The position numbers were made by a program. From the NCBI GenBank assembly GCA_965248445.1, contig CBDFJG010000003.1, positions 1,280,001 to 1,344,000 on the forward strand: 64,000 nucleotides of DNA, in the 5' to 3' direction. This DNA is from Planctomycetota bacterium (GTDB lineage Bacteria > Planctomycetota > JAJSAM01 > JAJVHW01). Below, one piece after another: positions 33,001 to 42,000 of this stretch. How positions within the stretch are numbered: the stretch's first letter is position 1; the number at the start of each line of letters is the position of its first letter.

Positions 33001-36000
33001 CTCGGTGTCCGTCTTCACGAACTCGGCGTGCTGGATCCCGGTGCGGTCGAAGAACTCGGTGAGCGTGGTGCGCTCGACCTCCTCTGCGCACCCGGCCCGA
33101 GCGTCCTCCTCGATCCGGCTCTTGACGCTCCGCGACGCCACGTGCATGACGGCCGTCCCACGGCGATCGCTGATCGCGAGATTGTGGCACGTGACACGCT
33201 GTCCCTTGACCGCGCCGCAGAGGCGGTCGTAGGTGGCCCGCACCGGCTCCACCGAGTGGATCAGGGCAGCCGGAAAGTGGTGGCGGAACGCGAGCGCAGA
33301 CTGACCGACGTTCGCACCGACGTCGACGATGGTCCGCGGCTCGCCGCCGTAGCGCCGCAGATCGTCGAGCAAATCCAGCCCGTGCGGGGCGCGGCGGAGG
33401 ACGCGCACCCCGGTCGCTCTGGTGATCCAGCGGTTGATCCGTCGCAGCATGAACCCGTGCTGCGAGACCGTACGGCGCCCATTCGACGCCGTCACGCCAT
33501 GCCGGACCGACCCGCCGCTCAGCCCGGCCGTTCAGCCGGCACAGGATCCGACAGACGGGCGACGTCGTATCCGACGTGCCATGGCGCACACGGCTTTCCG
33601 CCGTGGCCTCCCAGAGCGAGTCCGCCAGCTTTCGCCACGGCCAGGCGAGTGGGCGGCTTCGCGGGCTACGATCCCGCCTTGGCGCATCGTCCGAACAGGC
33701 TCAAGCTCAGGCTCCGTGCGGCGTATTCCGGCGTCCGATCCGCCTGATCGGCCAACGAGCCTGTCCCGTGAAACTGACGGCTCGTGGATTCGTCATGGAG
33801 CGACGGAACAGCGCGTGTCACACAGAATCCCGTCTACTATTCCGCCATGGGATCGGGGATGCGCCGCCTCTTCGTCGGATTCAGCCTCGCGGCCGTCTCT
33901 GTATCCGCCATGAGCGGCGGTACCGCGGCGGAAGCGCAGGAGGCCCGCCGTCCGGCCGTGCGGTGCCCGCCGACCGAGGGCGTGATCCGGGTGGACGGGC
34001 GGCTCGACGAGTGGTCTGCCTCCGCCATGCTCACGCTCGGTGAAGCGCAGCTGGTCCGGCGCGACCCACAGTACTTCGGACCCGGGGACCTCTCCGGTGA
34101 GATCTTCGTCGCCCGGGACGCCACGTCTCTCTACGTGGCCGGCCGGATCAAGGACGACACGCTGTTCTGGAACGCGCGGACGTCGTTCCGGGGGGACGGT
34201 GTCGAGCTGTTCCTCGACTTCCACCCGGACCCGGACAGCAGGGCTCCTGACGACGGCTACGACGGGCACACCCACCAGCTCCTCCTGCACCCGCTCGCGC
34301 CGGAGGTGAAGTGGAACTTCGGCGCTCTGTCGGGACGGATCTCACGACCGGATGATCCCGTCGACGGTCTCGAACTGGCGGCCCTGCCGATGCGGGACGA
34401 GAAGGACGCGACCGTCGGCTACACGTTCGAGCTGGCGCTTCCCCTCCACAACCTGACGGATGAGACGCTCACCGACGGCCGCGTGCTCGGGTTCGACGTG
34501 GCGCTCTCCGACTCCGACGGCCTGCCCGAGCAGAAGAACTACGCCACCTGGAGCGGCAACGAGCAGCTCTCGCAGTTTCCGGCCCGGTTCGGGCGCCTGG
34601 TCCTCGGCGAGGACCCAGCCGCTCCCGCGCAACCGGGTCACCAACGCGGGTCGCAGGCCGCCCCGCTCGCCATCCTGCTCGCGATCCTCGGCGCGCTGCT
34701 CTTCGCCTGGCTGGCGCGCCTCGGCACACCGGGCGGCCGCCGTCTCGCGGGGATTTTGGATGCCGTGCGGCGGGTCCGTCTCCGCACGAAGCTGATCGCC
34801 GGCGCCGTGCTGGTCGGATTGCTGCTGGTCACCCACTTCGGCGCGGGGTGGCTGGAACGGCGCCTGACACGCAGCGAGGTCGAGACGCGGCGCCTACTCG
34901 CGGCGGATGTGCTCTCCGCGGCGCGCGAGGCCGGGCGACTACGGCTGCTCGAACCGGACCCGCCCGAGGAGCCGGCACCGCTGATCTCGCTGCTCTCCGG
35001 ACGCACGCTCGCCCCGCCGGTCGACTACGACTTCACACTGCTGCCTCCGCAGGAGGAAGTGCCCCACCAGACTCTCGACGGCATCCCATACATGCGTCGC
35101 GACGTGCCCGTCATGACGCGATACACCGGTCAGTTCCTCGTGCACCCCCCGGCGCGGGCGCAACGCGCCACCGTGGTCTACTCGTACCGGCTGGACGATC
35201 CCGCGACGCGACCCGAGCCGGACACGGTCGTCGCGGAGTTTCGTTTCGTGCATCGGGACGGTCGCGTCCCGCCTCCGACGCTGCTGCGATTCGGGCGCCA
35301 GGTGGATGCATTCGATGACGCCGTCAGCACCGCGGGCGCAACGGCACCGAACGCCCCGGAGGCCCGCGTGGCGATTGCCTGGGAGGCCGACGACGGCGCT
35401 GCGCGCCACGCACTCTCTCTCGACGTCGAATTGCCGAGCGGAGAGAACCTGGCGCCCCTCGTGCGCATCGAGGTCGAGCCACGGGGCGCCGCCGGAACGC
35501 TGGTCATTCACGGCGTTGCCGTGCTCGAAGATTCAGCCGCCCCACCACGACCGCTGTCGCTCGGCCGCGCGACGCGGGCCGGCACGCCGACGGCCGCTGG
35601 GCCGTTCCCCGGCGACGGCGCAGTGCTCGAGATGTCCCGCGACGCCGACTGGCACGTGCTACGCGACCTCGACATCCGCGCCGACGCACTCTGGATCGTG
35701 ACGGGGCTGCGGCGAGAGTTCGCGCGGCATCGCTACCGGGCGCGCGTTGCGATTGTCGACATCGTGCTCGACGACGGCTCGGTGGAGGGTCCGTTCGCGC
35801 TCGAGAACGGTGTGTCGATCGACGCCGAGACAGCGCCGGCGCGCCAGCACGTGGACGGGTACAGAGGGGAGGTCGCGTACGAGTGGGGCGTGCCCGGCGA
35901 GTCCCGGAGACACGCAGACGTCGTCGCGCTGCCCTTCCAGAAGACGGGTCGCCGCATCCGCGAAGTCCAGCTGCAATTCACGGGTGAGGACGAAGTCGTG

Positions 36001-39000: not shown

Positions 39001-42000
39001 TCGGTCGTCATCCCGCCGCTGCGCGCGCGCAAGGACGACATTCCGGCGCTGGCGGGTGAGTTCTTGCGCCGTGCCGCCGAGGCGGCGGGCCGCGCCGTGC
39101 CGACAATTGCGCCCGATGCGATGGACCTCCTGTTCCGTCACCCGTGGCCCGGCAACGTGCGCGAACTGCGCAACGCAATCGATCAGGCAGTCGTTCTGTC
39201 GCCGGACGACACGCTGCGCGCACGCGACCTGACACCGGCTATCGGCGCTGCGCGGACCCGGCGCGGCGAGTCCCCGATCACACCCGGCGGGCTGTTCCCG
39301 CGTCCTGCGGCACCGCGCGCAGGTGCGGGTGGCGGGCTGACGGACCGTCAGCGCCGCTTGCTCGCCCTTCTCGCCGAGCGCGACATCCTCACGAACGGCG
39401 AGTACTGCGCGATCGTCAAGGTGTCGACGCGGACCGGCCTGCGCGACCTGCAAGACCTGCTGCGTCGAGGCCTGATCGTGATGGAAGGCAAACGCCGCGG
39501 CGCTCGCTATCGGCTCGCTTAGCACGGCACTCGAATCGCGAAGCGATCCTCGCGCCGTGCGTCGCTCGCATGTCCCCCCCTACGCGTCCTCCGGACGCTA
39601 CGGAGGGCTGCGGTCACGGTGCTTGCTGCGCAACCCCCGCGCCCTCGCGTTCGCTACGTCGGCAACGGACCGGGCTGCGCGGGGGCGGGCATCACTAGCC
39701 TCGGGGCTACTCGCTCTTCGGGGCGGCGACGCGGTCGAGTTCGGCGGGCGGCAGGATCAGGCGTCCCTCGCCGGGGTGCAGGATCGTGAACGTCACGAAG
39801 ATCACGAGCTCTGTCTTCTGTTCACGTTCGGTCGTCGAGCCGAACAGGCTCCCGATCAGTGGGATGTCCTTGAGCAACGGGATGCCCTTGCGTTCGGACA
39901 GTTTCTGCGTCTGCTGAAGCCCGCTGATGACGACGGTCTCGCCGTCCGGGATCATCACCACCGTCTTCGCGTTGCGCGTCGAGATCACCGGGTTGATCAC
40001 GTCGCGTTCGGTCGACGTGCTGGTGATGCGGAACTCGGAGACGCGCGAGACCTCGGGCTCGATCGAGGCGCGGACGACGTCCCTCCCGATCTGCAGCGGC
40101 ATCACACGAAGCGTGAGACCCAGGTCCTCGAACTTCGTCGCGGCAACGACGTTCGTACCCGAGAGCGTCTGAGTGACGATCGGCTCGCGCTCGCCGACGT
40201 TGATCGTGGCCACTTCACCGATTGACGCAACGATGCTGGGCATCGACAGCACTTCGGCCTTCGCACCGGAAGCGCCGAGCTGCAGCACGTAGTCGAACTT
40301 CACGAACTTGTCGGCGCTGCCGAGCGCCAGCGTCGAGGCCACGTCCACGCCGATCTGGTTCGCGAACACCGCGTCGAAGCGCTTGAAGAACAGGTCGCCC
40401 ACCGGGCGGTCGGTGCGAACATTGGAACTTTCGATACCGATGCGCAGCTGGTCGTCGAGAGTGATCTCGACGATCTTCGCCTCGACGTGCACCTGCGGCG
40501 GCGGCACGTCGATCATGGCCAGCACCTTCTCGAGGATCGGCCAGTTGTCGACGTGCTCTTCGATCCGCAGCGTCGTCTGGGCGAGCACGGTGGTCTTGTC
40601 GACCGGGACCCTGTTGTGGTCGCTCTCCTTGCGGAACTTCACGGGGGCGCCCATGAGGACGACGGTTGCCGGCTTCGTCTTCCACTTCGTGAGCTCGTCG
40701 ATCACCAGTTTCGGGTCGACGGCGTTGACGCGGTGAAAGCGGATCTCCATCCCGTCGGGCTTTCGAATGGTCGTGGCGTTCACGAACTCGAGGGCGCGCT
40801 CCGGCTCAGCGCCGTCCGGCTCTTCGTCGCCCACTGCGGGCGGGTCCTCCGCACGGGCGGTGGGCGGTGCCGGCATGGCGAGAGCCAAGCAGACGACGAG
40901 GAGAGAGCGTGCCGTGAGTCTCAACCGGGTCCTCCGCAGGTCCCAACCGACTAGAGAAGTCTGCGACTAGAGCTTCTGGATGACCGCGTCGGTGATGTCC
41001 GGGACGTCGTCCACGTTCTCCACCGCGCCCTTGCGGGCGACCAGGTCGTACTTGCCGGCGCGGGCGGCCTTCTTGACCGCAGCGACGAACCGGCGACTGG
41101 CCTTGTTCATCAGGAGCTGGTACTTCGCGTCGTCGGGCCCGAGTCCCTCGGCCAGGATCTGCTTGTACTCCGGTATTTCGGCATAGACGGCGTCGGCATC
41201 CACCTCGGCCGGCTTCTTCCAGTGGGCGGCGTCGCCGTAATACACGGCGGATGCCTCCACGCTGGGCTTCGGCTTCTTCTCGACGTCGCCGGCCTCGACC
41301 GGCTCGTCCGCGCGTGCGGGTGCCGGGGGGGCCAGGGGCAAGAGGAGGATGGCTGCGGAGAGCGCCAGAGGGAGCGACAGCCGTCGTCCGCCTGCCGGGA
41401 TGCGGGAAGTGAATCCGTCTCGCATCTCACCCTCCTGCCGTTCGCACCGATCCGCTGCGTCCTTCGCGGCGGACATCCGTGATCCATTGGACGGCCCGAC
41501 CGTCCGCTGGATCCCACGCTCATTGCGTGCCGTGGCGCAAATCGGCGTGTCCAAATGCGAGGATACTCACAACCTCAAGTGAAATAGGGGCTTAGGGCGG
41601 TTTCCGCCTCGGCGGGATTCCGCCGCGAATCGGCTGTGGTTATCCGCCGTCGCGGCAATGGCGCGATCGACAGCAGCGCGGTGGCGGAATCGGACCGCGC
41701 ACCGGCGCGATCCCCGGTGGGCCCATCGAGTAGCCTCCCGCGGTGACCGAGCGCGCACCGCCGCCGCCCCCGGAGGACAGCCAGCACGGTGACAGCCAAC
41801 CCGGCGACGACCCGCCGTCGGAGGAGGTCACCACCGCGGAGTCGCGGCCCGGCGAAGCGGCATCGGATCAGCCGGCACCGGAGTCCCCGGACACACCGAC
41901 GGCACCTGACACACCGACGGGACGAGCCCGCGCGTGGTTGAGGGCCCGGCACGAGGTGCTCTGGCTGTTCCTGCTCGCGCTGGCCGTCCGCGCGCTCGCC

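Follow-up and report, generated by a model that had tools for sequence, protein, structure and literature searches.

The window analysed here, a 64,000-nucleotide stretch of a Planctomycetota genome, contains a giant open frame, hereafter the activator gene, at positions 33859..39522 (+). The longest ORF at the locus extends from 33784 to 39522, and the start at ATG 33859 gives 1887 codons plus a stop, i.e. a protein of 1887 aa by translation. The gene is genuine, as a preliminary description of this DNA had proposed, judging from the ORF list, the translation, the Pfam matches and 39 full-length homologues. Its predicted product comprises, in this order, a signal peptide, a CBM9 domain, helices TM1 and TM2, a beta-rich outer domain of about 510 residues, helices TM3 and TM4, a Cache domain and helix TM5, followed by HAMP, GAF, a GGDEF domain devoid of the catalytic signature, a complete sigma-54 AAA+ domain and, last, a winged helix. 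The 39 Planctomycetota homologues that were fetched (25–57% identity) share this architecture as a whole. The family is commoner than the 6 of 60 genomes noted at first: with the N-terminal 1540 residues as query, at least 59 of 401 sampled Planctomycetota genomes match, a floor that includes the genome studied here and about nine genomes in which the match covers one domain only. The genome contains a single copy of rpoN and ordinary enhancer-binding proteins, as had been reported; the 13 other enhancer-binding-protein frames that were read all have a Fis-type tail, and just one displays a weak hydrophobic segment.

Membrane topology and sensor domains

The signal peptide (residues 1–26; 33859..33936, +) consists of MRR, a hydrophobic core and AEA before Q; it was assigned by hydropathy, residues 4–24 being uncharged, with the cleavage site placed by eye, and many homologues also show an N-terminal hydrophobic segment. 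TM1 (residues 267–287) and TM2 (residues 311–331), with hydropathy values of 2.44 and 2.04, flank a short basic cytoplasmic loop (residues 288–310; six K+R versus one D+E), the three elements spanning 34657..34851 (+); both helices are kept in the homologues. TM3 (843–867) and TM4 (877–897) form a hairpin (36385..36549, +) supported by hydropathy, by two segments in many homologues and by AlphaFold2 helices at 836–867 and 873–938; P857 and P888 are invariant, and R876, at the turn, is nearly so. TM5 (1156–1178; 37324..37392, +), with a hydropathy of 2.31, is conserved and belongs to a continuous model helix (1145–1194). The preliminary description counted six transmembrane helices, three of them within 838–894. 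The segments in homologues and the model helices indicate two in the stretch 838–897, and the total after the signal peptide is therefore five. This difference matters, since six helices behind a cleaved signal peptide would place the ATPase outside, whereas five place it in the cytoplasm. All 39 full-length homologues keep the pattern of a signal peptide followed by five hydrophobic segments, and basic loops occur on the side predicted to be cytoplasmic, with a charge bias that is only moderate on some flanks. The AlphaFold2 models have a pLDDT of 85.2 (N-part) and 87.0, with low values (44–63) at TM1 and the TM3–TM4 turn. Altogether, computation shows that the signal peptide and the five helices put the CBM9, large beta-rich and Cache domains outside the cytoplasm.

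The CBM9-fold domain (residues 32–251; 33952..34611, +) is matched by Pfam CBM9_1 at 2.6e-13 over the span given previously (45–250); CBM9_1 is detected in 40/40 family members, and the model superimposes on 1i82_A with a Z score of 23.4 and an rmsd of 2.1 over 187 aligned residues. Outer loop 1 (residues 332–842; 34852..36384, +), as seen in the AlphaFold2 model of the N-part, consists of a stalk helix, beta-rich domains (about 389–725) and a small alpha/beta domain (749–833). Scans of this protein and of family members revealed no Pfam family in this loop, and no firm fold match was found, the sole match, to AziU2/U3, being middling (Z 11.7, rmsd 4.9). Outer loop 2 (residues 898–1155; 36550..37323, +) is a Cache-type sensor domain: Foldseek matches it to the ligand-binding domains of PctA, TlpQ, Mlp24 and LuxQ (E about 1e-5), VIA-align gives a Cache match of model residues 896–1153 with Z scores of 9–12.3, and sCache_3_3 scores in 3/40 family members. 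Both identifiable outer parts, CBM9 and Cache, have sensor-type folds.

The cytoplasmic chain

TM5 leads into a HAMP domain and then into GAF- and GGDEF-like domains. None of the three scores in the protein itself (Pfam, E up to 1), and all three score in homologues, two observations already made in the preliminary description; Pfam scans of 38 members returned HAMP in 31, GGDEF in 30, GAF_2 in 21, GAF_3 in 15 and GAF in 12. The HAMP domain (residues about 1180–1248; 37396..37602, +) was delineated from member scans, a profile search and model helices, its family profile matching the Af1503 HAMP in the PDB at E 7e-10. The GAF-like domain (about 1243–1387; 37585..38019, +) has an alpha/beta model fold in addition to the member scans and profile search, with PDB matches to GAF chains 6oap (2e-12) and DevS (5e-8). 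Member scans and a profile search likewise define a degenerate GGDEF domain (about 1397–1526; 38047..38436, +), whose family profile matches TpbB, PleD and WspR at about 2e-24; it lacks the GG[DE]EF signature, the catalytic columns being degenerate in 38/38 members, and judging from its sequence it is probably non-catalytic.

The sigma-54 AAA+ domain and its lid (residues 1552–1802; 38512..39264, +) are identified by Pfam, by Foldseek and by invariant motifs. Sigma54_activat (1552–1716, 2.7e-68) and AAA_lid_14 (1722–1802, 1.5e-23) were recovered as described before, and the GAFTGA loop, a feature specific to contact with sigma-54, indeed lies at 1625–1630. Walker A occupies 1578–1585 and Walker B includes D1649 and E1650; GAFTGA, the Walker A core, D1649, E1650, R1704 and R1710 are invariant in 40/40 sequences, and Foldseek aligns the model with FlrC, NtrC1 and FleQ with an rmsd of 1.2–1.7. 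Beyond a disordered linker (1804–1825), the only long one in the modelled chain, comes a C-terminal winged helix (residues 1829–1887; 39343..39519, +), defined by the model, the alignment and a profile search. First recognized by eye, this fold is borne out by AlphaFold2 (helix-helix-helix-strand-strand, pLDDT about 90) and by the family profile, whose best PDB match (8cil_A, E 2.2e-5) is the winged helix at the C-terminus of a Fic protein, followed by Lrp/AsnC, GntR and MarR types. HTH_DeoR is matched in 19/38 members, and the alignment contains invariant S, R, T, R, L and G residues. The winged helix, which stands in for the usual Fis-type helix-turn-helix, is kept in 37/39 homologues, the remaining two being cut off by contig ends.

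The preliminary reading of the product as a sigma-54 activator that is one-component, integrated in the membrane and equipped with outside sensors is supported by the hydrophobic pattern, the sensor folds, the HAMP–GAF–GGDEF chain, the AAA+ motifs and the winged helix, each testable part of it standing. These features are best explained by a one-component sigma-54 enhancer-binding protein integral to the inner membrane.

A candidate target operon

Convergent with the activator gene lies a gene for a short secretin of 405 aa (39707..40924, −), which is recognized by Pfam Secretin (6.3e-38) and by synteny, and which matches the NCBIfam GspD-type model at 1.4e-47, below cut-off. Next to it, a gene for a Skp/OmpH-like periplasmic protein of 152 aa (40967..41425, −; Pfam OmpH 1.6e-6, below cut-off) would be the first gene of the operon. 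We propose here this Skp-like/secretin operon as a new candidate target of the activator. The tail of the giant frame and a Skp-like gene lie at most 4 kb apart in 32 genomes (22 co-directional and 10 convergent, compiled by hand from gene-place tables). Linkage is not required, since the operon of families f28 and f53 does not adjoin the activator gene.

Tandem ATGGCGGAAT-like repeats stand in front of the Skp-like/secretin pair, some 95–155 nt upstream of a sigma-54-type promoter, GGCAC-N-TTG; repeats and promoter element are also present before the pair in genomes that do not have it linked to the activator gene. In the window, the candidate enhancer consists of three GGCGGA[AT] repeats with spacings of 24 and 16 bp (41602..41650, −), and homologous loci have these repeats too. 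This cluster is the tightest of only three in the 5.4-Mb genome (10.8 Mb counting both strands), and the only one of the three to be followed by a GGCAC element. The candidate promoter, CGGCAC-N5-GAGC (41518..41532, −), located 107 nt 5' of the Skp-like start codon, is conserved with two homologous loci (L106 and L107); like others of its lineage it is weak, with 7/10 consensus positions, a weak −12 part and no TT at −14/−15. The −12 element differs among clades (TTGC, TTGT, TTGG, GMGC), an uncommon variation among sigma-54 promoters.

The top 7-mer upstream of Skp-like genes is GGCGGAA, found in 10/17 loci versus a 6.9% background (p 3e-8; the p-values, here and below, count related genomes as independent and therefore overstate the signal). 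A sigma-54-type element scores at least 9/10 upstream of the Skp-like gene in 6/17 loci (background 0.55%) and at least 8/10 in 12/17 (background 7.6%). In a test set of 19 loci that were unused in motif discovery and in which the Skp-like and activator genes are unlinked, GGCGGAA is found in 12 (9.6% background, p 1.6e-8) and a promoter-like element scoring at least 8/10 in 16 (12% background, p 1.6e-12), none of the 19 reaching 9/10. The activator gene itself has one ATGGCGGAAT copy at 33839..33848 (−), recognized from its sequence 11 nt 5' of the start codon, and 14/38 loci have GGCGGAAT no more than 160 nt from the activator start, versus a 1.2% background, which suggests autoregulation. 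The motif is tied to the winged helix by co-location alone, and another factor could bind it.

If so, the product may be a membrane enhancer-binding protein while the ATGGCGGAAT repeats are the site of a different regulator and the operon is not the product's target, the synteny of rpsO, pnp, activator, Skp-like and secretin genes reflecting inherited order with no bearing on regulation. Indeed, rpsO and pnp are conserved neighbours as well (16/39 and 19/39 loci) that nobody calls targets, and more genomes have the Skp-like gene than the activator (137 versus at least 59 of 401). We nevertheless find this quite unlikely: the motif tracks both the activator start region and the Skp-like operon, even when they are unlinked, the repeats keep a fixed distance of 95–155 nt from a −24/−12-type element, which is the usual enhancer distance, the only repeat cluster of this genome with a GGCAC element after it is the one in front of the operon, and the recognition residues of the winged helix are invariant across the clades that retain the motif.

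The very large outer domains, together with conserved neighbour genes for an outer-membrane channel and a chaperone-like protein of the periplasm, could also suggest that the protein acts with the secretin as an envelope component whose main role is structural or related to transport, and whose AAA+ domain does not serve transcription. Such a role is highly improbable given the GAFTGA motif, invariant in 40/40, the conserved DNA-binding fold at the C-terminus and the −24/−12-type promoter and upstream repeats in front of the neighbouring operon.

Proposed mechanism

By analogy with chemoreceptors and sensor kinases, a ligand or envelope signal perceived by the outer domains would be transmitted through TM5 and HAMP. 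The GAF and GGDEF-like pair would then release the AAA+ domains for ring assembly, the winged helix would bind the tandem repeats, and the ring would remodel sigma-54 RNA polymerase at the GGCAC-N-TTG promoter about 95–155 nt downstream, driving the Skp-like chaperone and short secretin genes. The protein would do so while staying in the membrane, which assumes both that a ring can assemble from subunits with five membrane helices each and that the DNA reaches the membrane. An activator that never leaves the membrane would account for how often its gene and the target operon are neighbours.

Alternatively, the membrane form may be a precursor or store, from which a signal-triggered protease frees a soluble AAA+ and winged-helix fragment, with or without GAF and GGDEF, that acts on sigma-54 promoters. 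Membrane-bound transcription factors freed by proteolysis are known, a soluble ring would more simply meet DNA-bound RNA polymerase, and the unlinked operons of f28 and f53 are easier to reconcile with a diffusible activator. Yet with its succession TM5–HAMP–signalling helix–GAF–GGDEF–AAA+ the protein is laid out like receptors that pass a conformational signal along an uncut polypeptide, comparison of the homologous loci revealed no conserved protease gene beside the activator gene, and a cut in the sole long disordered linker (1804–1825) would part the ATPase from the DNA-binding domain. We consider release by proteolysis unlikely, and predict, with a probability of roughly 0.55, that the intact, membrane-bound enhancer-binding protein activates the Skp-like/secretin operon. 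If this is true, outside sensing and the direct switching-on of a nearby secretin operon would fall to one and the same membrane protein.

Comparison with known systems

NifA, NorR and FhlA, which are soluble proteins of about 500–700 aa with a Fis-type helix-turn-helix, resemble the activator in having a GAF domain N-terminal of the same AAA+ core, with GAFTGA, Walker motifs and arginine fingers in common; the NCBIfam NifA and NorR models match residues 1543–1792 at 2e-99 and 2e-90, below every NCBIfam cut-off. The activator adds a 1178-residue receptor with five helices, HAMP, a degenerate GGDEF and a winged helix. ToxR, TcpP and CadC, which have an N-terminal OmpR-type winged helix, mostly one membrane helix, and work with sigma-70 polymerase, are similar in that one protein senses the outside and binds DNA from the membrane, but the output of the activator is an ATPase ring for sigma-54. 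Table 1 of a 2023 survey of transmembrane transcription regulators (PMC10269533) agrees as to the OmpR-type winged helix and the mostly single membrane helix of the ToxR/TcpP/CadC type; according to the part of the survey consulted, those of Planctomycetota average three or more membrane helices, and the words sigma, enhancer and NtrC never occur in its main text.

Residues 877–1250 of the activator follow the same plan (TM, outer Cache, TM, HAMP) as the chemoreceptors PctA, TlpQ and Tlp3 and the sensor kinases DctB and LuxQ. The output differs, being a sigma-54 activator instead of a kinase, a methyl-accepting bundle or an active cyclase, and the activator has a second receptor module in front, made of CBM9, two helices and the 510-residue domain. 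As for the statement that enhancer-binding proteins are soluble, full-text searches found no description of any integral-membrane one, but the databases show the statement to be too strong: among 76 sampled ordinary enhancer-binding-protein frames, just one has strong hydrophobic helices, a membrane histidine kinase–NtrC-type fusion in a betaproteobacterial metagenome genome (L051). That fusion is a two-component system end to end (GAF, HATPase_c, receiver, AAA+, HTH_8), relying on phosphotransfer and a Fis-type helix-turn-helix, and is unrelated to the N-terminal receptor of the activator.

Finally, the phage-shock system, PspF with PspA, PspB and PspC, likewise employs a sigma-54 activator to report on the membrane or envelope; it is classically induced by mislocalised secretins, and PspF binds near its own gene. 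PspF is soluble, lacks a sensor domain and is controlled in trans by membrane proteins, whereas here sensor and activator reside in one chain, and a secretin, the stimulus in the PspF system, is encoded by the presumed target of the activator.

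Open reading frame, outer domains and topology

The longest open frame of the locus runs from 33784 to 39522 (+), and the ATG at 33859 gives a product of 1887 residues (g02514, hereafter the window protein), in agreement with the gene at 33859–39522 of the preliminary description. The G+C content of the region, 69–72%, is the same as that of its surroundings. Pfam likewise returned the three domains reported there, namely CBM9_1 (residues 45–250, 2.6e-13), Sigma54_activat (PF00158; 1552–1716, 2.7e-68) and AAA_lid_14 (1722–1802, 1.5e-23). The best 25 of 29 NCBIfam matches are confined to residues ~1532–1808 and all lie below their cut-offs, so that the protein has no curated equivalog among them.

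An AlphaFold2 model of residues 1–1195 (pLDDT 85.2) delineates the extracytoplasmic part. Residues 32–251 match the CBM9 of Thermotoga xylanase 10A (1i82_A; Z 23.4, rmsd 2.1, 187 residues aligned) and, more weakly (Z 12–13), the haem-binding subunits of ethylbenzene dehydrogenase and nitrite oxidoreductase. The β-sandwich is that of CBM9, and CBM9_1 scores in 40/40 members of the family. The N-terminal outer domain is, as modeled, a CBM9 fold, for which sugar is only a putative ligand, given the haem-binding matches. Residues 896–1153 resemble the Cache domains that bind ligands in many chemoreceptors and sensor kinases (Z 9–12.3; Foldseek probability 1.0), with the Cache fold flanked by two membrane helices in the model; Pfam scores sCache_3_3 in three of the 40 members. 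The first outer loop (510 residues) is modeled as β-rich and closes with a small α/β domain. No firm fold match was obtained for it: a protein-atlas search with this loop gave no usable match, and the one to AziU2/U3 (for residues 380–731) is middling.

A 19-residue hydropathy scan placed a signal-like hydrophobic segment at 4–24 and peaks at 267–285, 312–330, 850–868, 878–896 and 1159–1177. The preliminary description had counted six membrane helices, three of them within 838–894. This region contains two, as indicated by (i) the homologues, many of which (among 39) show two separate segments here, e.g. 870–895 and 900–929 in L112, one of the fetched loci; (ii) the AlphaFold2 model, with helices 836–867 and 873–938 separated by a short turn; and (iii) the nearly invariant R876 carried by this TM3–TM4 turn. 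The count is therefore five, besides the signal peptide. Five helices and a cleaved signal peptide place the C-terminal part in the cytoplasm, which six would not. The TM1–TM2 loop has six K+R versus one D+E, and the stretch after TM5 has four versus two; on the outer side, the flanks are either uncharged on balance or acidic, with the exception of the stalk after TM2 (six K+R versus four D+E). Altogether, this charge distribution moderately supports the predicted five-helix topology.

Cytoplasmic chain, AAA+ domain and winged helix

HAMP, GAF and GGDEF are absent from the Pfam scan of the window protein itself and score in its homologues, as had been described: member-by-member scans of 38 aligned proteins gave HAMP in 31, GGDEF in 30, GAF_2 in 21, GAF_3 in 15, HTH_DeoR in 19 and HTH_24 in 7. 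Compared with solved structures, a family profile of residues 1179–1549 matched GGDEF domains (TpbB and PleD, ~2e-24), GAF (2e-12) and the HAMP of Af1503 (7e-10). None of the 38 members retains the GG[DE]EF signature, its columns having degenerated (the window protein reads RDGGV there), which argues for a non-catalytic relay or scaffold; judged from this signature, the predicted GGDEF domain of the window protein is not a cyclase. Binding of c-di-GMP at an RxxD inhibitory site was also considered and set aside, since the motif aspartate is not conserved (alignment, by eye).

In a second AlphaFold2 model (residues 1140–1887, pLDDT 87.0), the AAA+ domain superposes on those of FlrC, NtrC1 and FleQ with rmsd values of 1.2–1.7. 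The Walker motifs are intact: the Walker A core GETGxGK is found in 40/40 members, the last Walker A residue, E1585, in 39/40, and D1649 and E1650 of Walker B in 40/40. The GAFTGA loop, previously located at 1625, spans 1625–1630 and all six residues are invariant in the 40 members. R1704 and R1710 are found in 40/40 and G1765, N1766 and R1768 in 39–40 of 40; we take these two groups to be the arginine fingers and sensor II, respectively. The genome encodes sigma-54, as had been stated, with one Sigma54_DBD match (7.2e-58) at C3:952137–952610.

The C-terminal winged helix, originally recognized by eye, is borne out by the model, in which a disordered linker precedes a 59-residue tail made of three helices and a β-hairpin. 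Alignment of the tails shows invariant S, R, T, R, L and G residues, and the tail profile matches the C-terminal winged helix of a Fic protein (2.2e-5), followed by Lrp/AsnC, GntR and MarR types; in the window protein, Pfam gives a faint HTH_DeoR at 1830–1873 (E 0.23). HTH_8, the Fis-type motif noted earlier as missing, is not found in the window protein by Pfam at E values up to 1. HTH_8 is usual but not universal among enhancer-binding proteins (EBPs), and the winged helix that replaces it marks a variant rather than exclusion from the class.

Distribution of the family

A word-indexed search with residues 1–1540 retrieved 20 proteins, 19 of which are 1635–2005 residues long and contain Sigma54_activat; their source names, where given, include 'sigma 54-interacting transcriptional regulator', NtrC-family response regulator and diguanylate cyclase-like protein. 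The same residues find a match in at least 59 of 401 sampled Planctomycetota genomes; in about nine of the 59, the match covers nothing but the CBM9 or the GGDEF-like part. Each of the seven other genomes of the host's family has a match, as do all nine from two more families of its order. We fetched 40 homologous loci, 39 of which contain an unbroken frame of 1649–2607 codons with GAFTGA. Note that in L105 (G133:C184), a close relative, the homologue carries an in-frame TAG, so that the gene may be a pseudogene, unless the sequence is in error. Across 39 homologues of 25–57% identity, the signal segment recurs, as do all five helices and the tail, two tails being cut by contig ends. Searched against 1.84 billion representatives, an N-terminal profile found 497 proteins at E ≤ 1e-30; among the best 150, several dozen proteins of ~1700–1950 residues match over the full length. 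A subgroup of ~1553–1569 aa (P0110, P0123, P0138, P0140 and P0157) starts at TM1 and has neither signal peptide nor CBM9.

The winged-helix tail has profile matches in 141 of the 401 genomes. In one taxonomic family, f24 (e.g. G021, G181, G198, G214, G276 and G306), each genome has several frames of ~770–1090 codons that bear the same tail, and some of them matched the N-terminal query through the GGDEF-like region only. The cassette formed by the degenerate GGDEF, the AAA+ domain and the winged helix seems to serve repeatedly as an output module behind different and shorter N-terminal parts.

Genomic neighborhood and candidate target operon

Neighboring genes were surveyed by an all-against-all comparison of the frames in 21 loci and then by tblastn across 39. 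Upstream of the activator gene and on the same strand, rpsO is found in 16/39 loci and pnp in 19/39; downstream lie a Skp/OmpH-like gene (16/39) and a short secretin gene (18/39). In the window, this pair (secretin gene, 39707–40924, –; Skp-like gene, 40967–41425, –) is convergent with the activator gene; in more distant families, it follows the activator gene immediately and in the same direction. Of 401 Planctomycetota genomes, 137 gave a match in a profile search for the Skp-like gene. Tables compared by hand place it within 4 kb of the tail of the giant frame in 32 genomes, co-directionally in 22 and convergently in 10; in families f28 and f53, it is unlinked from the activator tail. A complex prediction between the three outer domains and the mature Skp-like protein scored 0.00, which weighs neither way.

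The stretch between pnp (26705–29017) and the activator gene differs from that of many other genomes, where pnp lies ~0.5 kb or less from the activator gene: in the window, 29203–33747 holds four unrelated frames, i.e. an unknown 477-aa frame (–), an FGE-sulfatase-like gene (30691–31827), an ornithine cyclodeaminase-like gene (31878–32756) and an unknown 372-aa frame, none of which was found at 39 other loci. Beyond the operon, 41743–44468 contains two frames, one for a PMT_2-type glycosyltransferase and one for a DUF1559 protein that has an N-terminal methylation motif; the PMT_2 gene is again found near the locus in 4/39 loci.

A candidate enhancer and sigma-54 promoter

Three GGCGGA[AT] repeats lie at 41602–41650 (–), upstream of the Skp-like gene, and in the homologous upstream regions there are two to five ATGGCGGAAT-like repeats, in many cases 10–11 bp apart. 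In an unbiased count over 17 Skp-like upstream regions, GGCGGAA was the top 7-mer (10/17 versus a background of 6.9%), occurring twice or more in five regions versus a background of 1.1%. The loose repeat pattern forms only three clusters in the 5.4-Mb genome, the one at 41602–41650 being the tightest; the strict motif gives three close pairs, of which the two others lie inside a glycine-rich coding repeat. Note that a 927-codon glycine-rich repeat frame at C4:384294–387074 (–) has DNA repeats that mimic GGCGGAA on the opposite strand. The activator gene itself is also marked: the repeat 8-mer occurs within 160 nt of its start in 14/38 loci versus 1.2% in the background, and the window has an 8-mer match at 33839–33848. 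The densest cluster of any locus, six pattern matches in 55 bp, is that of L118 (G264:C1, 189–244, +), ~7 kb from the activator gene.

As a test, we turned to 25 genomes whose Skp-like operon lies away from the activator gene and took the sequence upstream of it; the 19 second-batch regions with enough sequence were counted. GGCGGAA is present in 12/19 versus a background of 9.6%, and the repeats lie steadily 95–155 nt upstream of a promoter-like element. The p-values for motif and promoter overstate the signal because related genomes were treated as independent; the matches are nevertheless spread over many families. That the repeats are due to chance or foreign to the window protein seems rather improbable to us.

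The promoter-like element is of the -24/-12 type and lies downstream of the repeats. In the window it reads CGGCAC-N5-GAGC (41518–41532, –), within a block conserved with two relatives; other loci have TGGCAC-N5-TTGT, TGGCAT-N5-TTGC, GGGCAC-N5-TTGG and similar forms. We scored ten consensus positions, as an earlier score that required GC at -12 missed the TTGT and TTGG forms. Scores of at least 9 were obtained for 6/17 Skp-like upstream regions versus 0.55% of random windows, and scores of at least 8 for 12/17 versus 7.6%; in the unlinked test regions, 16/19 reach 8 versus 12%, and none reaches 9. The GGCAC of the -24 part is kept across clades and the -12 part varies with them: TTGC in f36, f65 and f45, TTGT in f2, f21 and f53, TTGG in f28, and GAGC or GCGC in the window's own family. 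It is unusual for sigma-54 promoters to lose the GC dinucleotide in this way, and the poor -12 element of the window's own lineage is among the weakest points of our reading. With the strict consensus TGGCAC-N5-TTGC and at most one mismatch, the window gives three matches versus 2.96 expected, none near the activator gene. Another sequence in the region, TTGGAC...TTGC at ~41553–41537 (–), was rejected as a promoter on account of its GG-to-GC spacing of 12 bases instead of 10. Ahead of the activator gene itself, an element of the sigma-54 type is lacking, 3/37 loci reaching at least 8 of 10 there (p 0.54).

The binding site of a regulator typically shows up as a motif that marks the regulator gene as well as a single operon, whether or not the two are linked, and that lies at enhancer distance from a -24/-12 element. 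On this ground, we propose that the winged helix binds the repeats and that the window protein would activate the Skp-like/secretin operon via sigma-54, acting from the membrane; it may also be autoregulated. Activation of a sigma-54 promoter from an upstream site and at the expense of ATP is predicted here from the candidate enhancer and promoter.

Implications and comparison with known activators

The most far-reaching reading, to which we give a probability of about 0.45, i.e. a little short of even odds, is that certain sigma-54 activators of Planctomycetota are themselves polytopic membrane receptors and make up a conserved class. The intact protein would build its ATPase ring at the inner side of the membrane, bind the ATGGCGGAAT repeats by its winged helix and fire the sigma-54 promoter of an outer-membrane secretin and its Skp-like chaperone. 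From the HAMP-type wiring we infer both the steps that would lead from ligand to ring assembly and action on DNA from within the membrane. A conserved family whose activator is itself a membrane receptor raises the question of how a hexameric (or heptameric) ring is built from five-helix subunits and reaches DNA; proteolysis might release the activator part, which, given that wiring, seems unlikely to us. If the intact protein does act from the membrane, enhancer-dependent transcription would take place there, an outside sensor would be tied to envelope-channel making without a phosphorelay, and a target beside the activator gene would answer the search problem of a tethered activator. The proposed regulon (repeat enhancer, -24/-12 promoter and two-gene envelope operon) is concrete and testable, hence usable as a model, and the family would open a first way into planctomycete signal transduction and the control of secretins in this phylum.

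EBPs are usually regarded as soluble ring ATPases that receive their input from two-component systems or small ligands. The preliminary description took the known ones to be soluble. In the same genome, the 13 other EBP frames all have a Fis-type tail and none has strong hydrophobic segments. Two EBPs of this genome stood out besides: L142 (C1:114240–119570, –) is a second giant EBP, of 1777 aa and devoid of membrane helices, in which a protein kinase, a STAND-type AAA_16, TPR, GAF, Sigma54_activat and HTH_8 follow each other, a fusion of Ser/Thr kinase and activator being uncommon, and L143 (C4:855416–858829, –; 1138 aa) combines FHA, GAF, Sigma54_activat and HTH_8. The generalization fails in a wider sample. 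A profile scan keyed on the AAA+ core had returned ordinary EBPs only (L001–L080), which did not serve for synteny and were reused as background: the conserved winged-helix core pattern is found in none of 76 such frames from unrelated genomes, the four whose tails were inspected all end in a Fis-type motif, and only two, L051 and L069, have hydrophobic segments. L051 (2828–6319, +), from a betaproteobacterial metagenome genome, joins a membrane histidine kinase (helices, GAF and HATPase_c) to a receiver, Sigma54_activat and HTH_8, an entire two-component system within one membrane protein; L069, an activator with an FHA domain, has just one hydrophobic segment. Membrane-bound EBPs are therefore present in databases, rare and differently built.

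Our full-text search, mostly of journals outside subscription and of articles without their supplements, found no description of a membrane-integral EBP, nor is one described in the available text of Francke 2011 (PMC3162934), Kazakov 2015 (PMC4641369), PMC10269533, PMC6615313 and PMC5744179. According to the portions available of a survey of 431 Clostridiales EBPs, most regulatory domains lack transmembrane regions, which was taken as sensing of inside signals (PMC6615313). The words sigma, enhancer and NtrC are absent from the main text of a 2023 survey of transmembrane transcription regulators (PMC10269533). Under the broad definition contained in the available text of that survey (PMC10269533), the window protein resembles the ToxR/CadC class, as it likewise joins a DNA-binding domain, membrane helices and an outside sensor. 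Regulators of the ToxR type are sigma-70 activators, whereas the window protein is a predicted sigma-54 activator; it would thus extend membrane-tethered transcription from the former to the latter.
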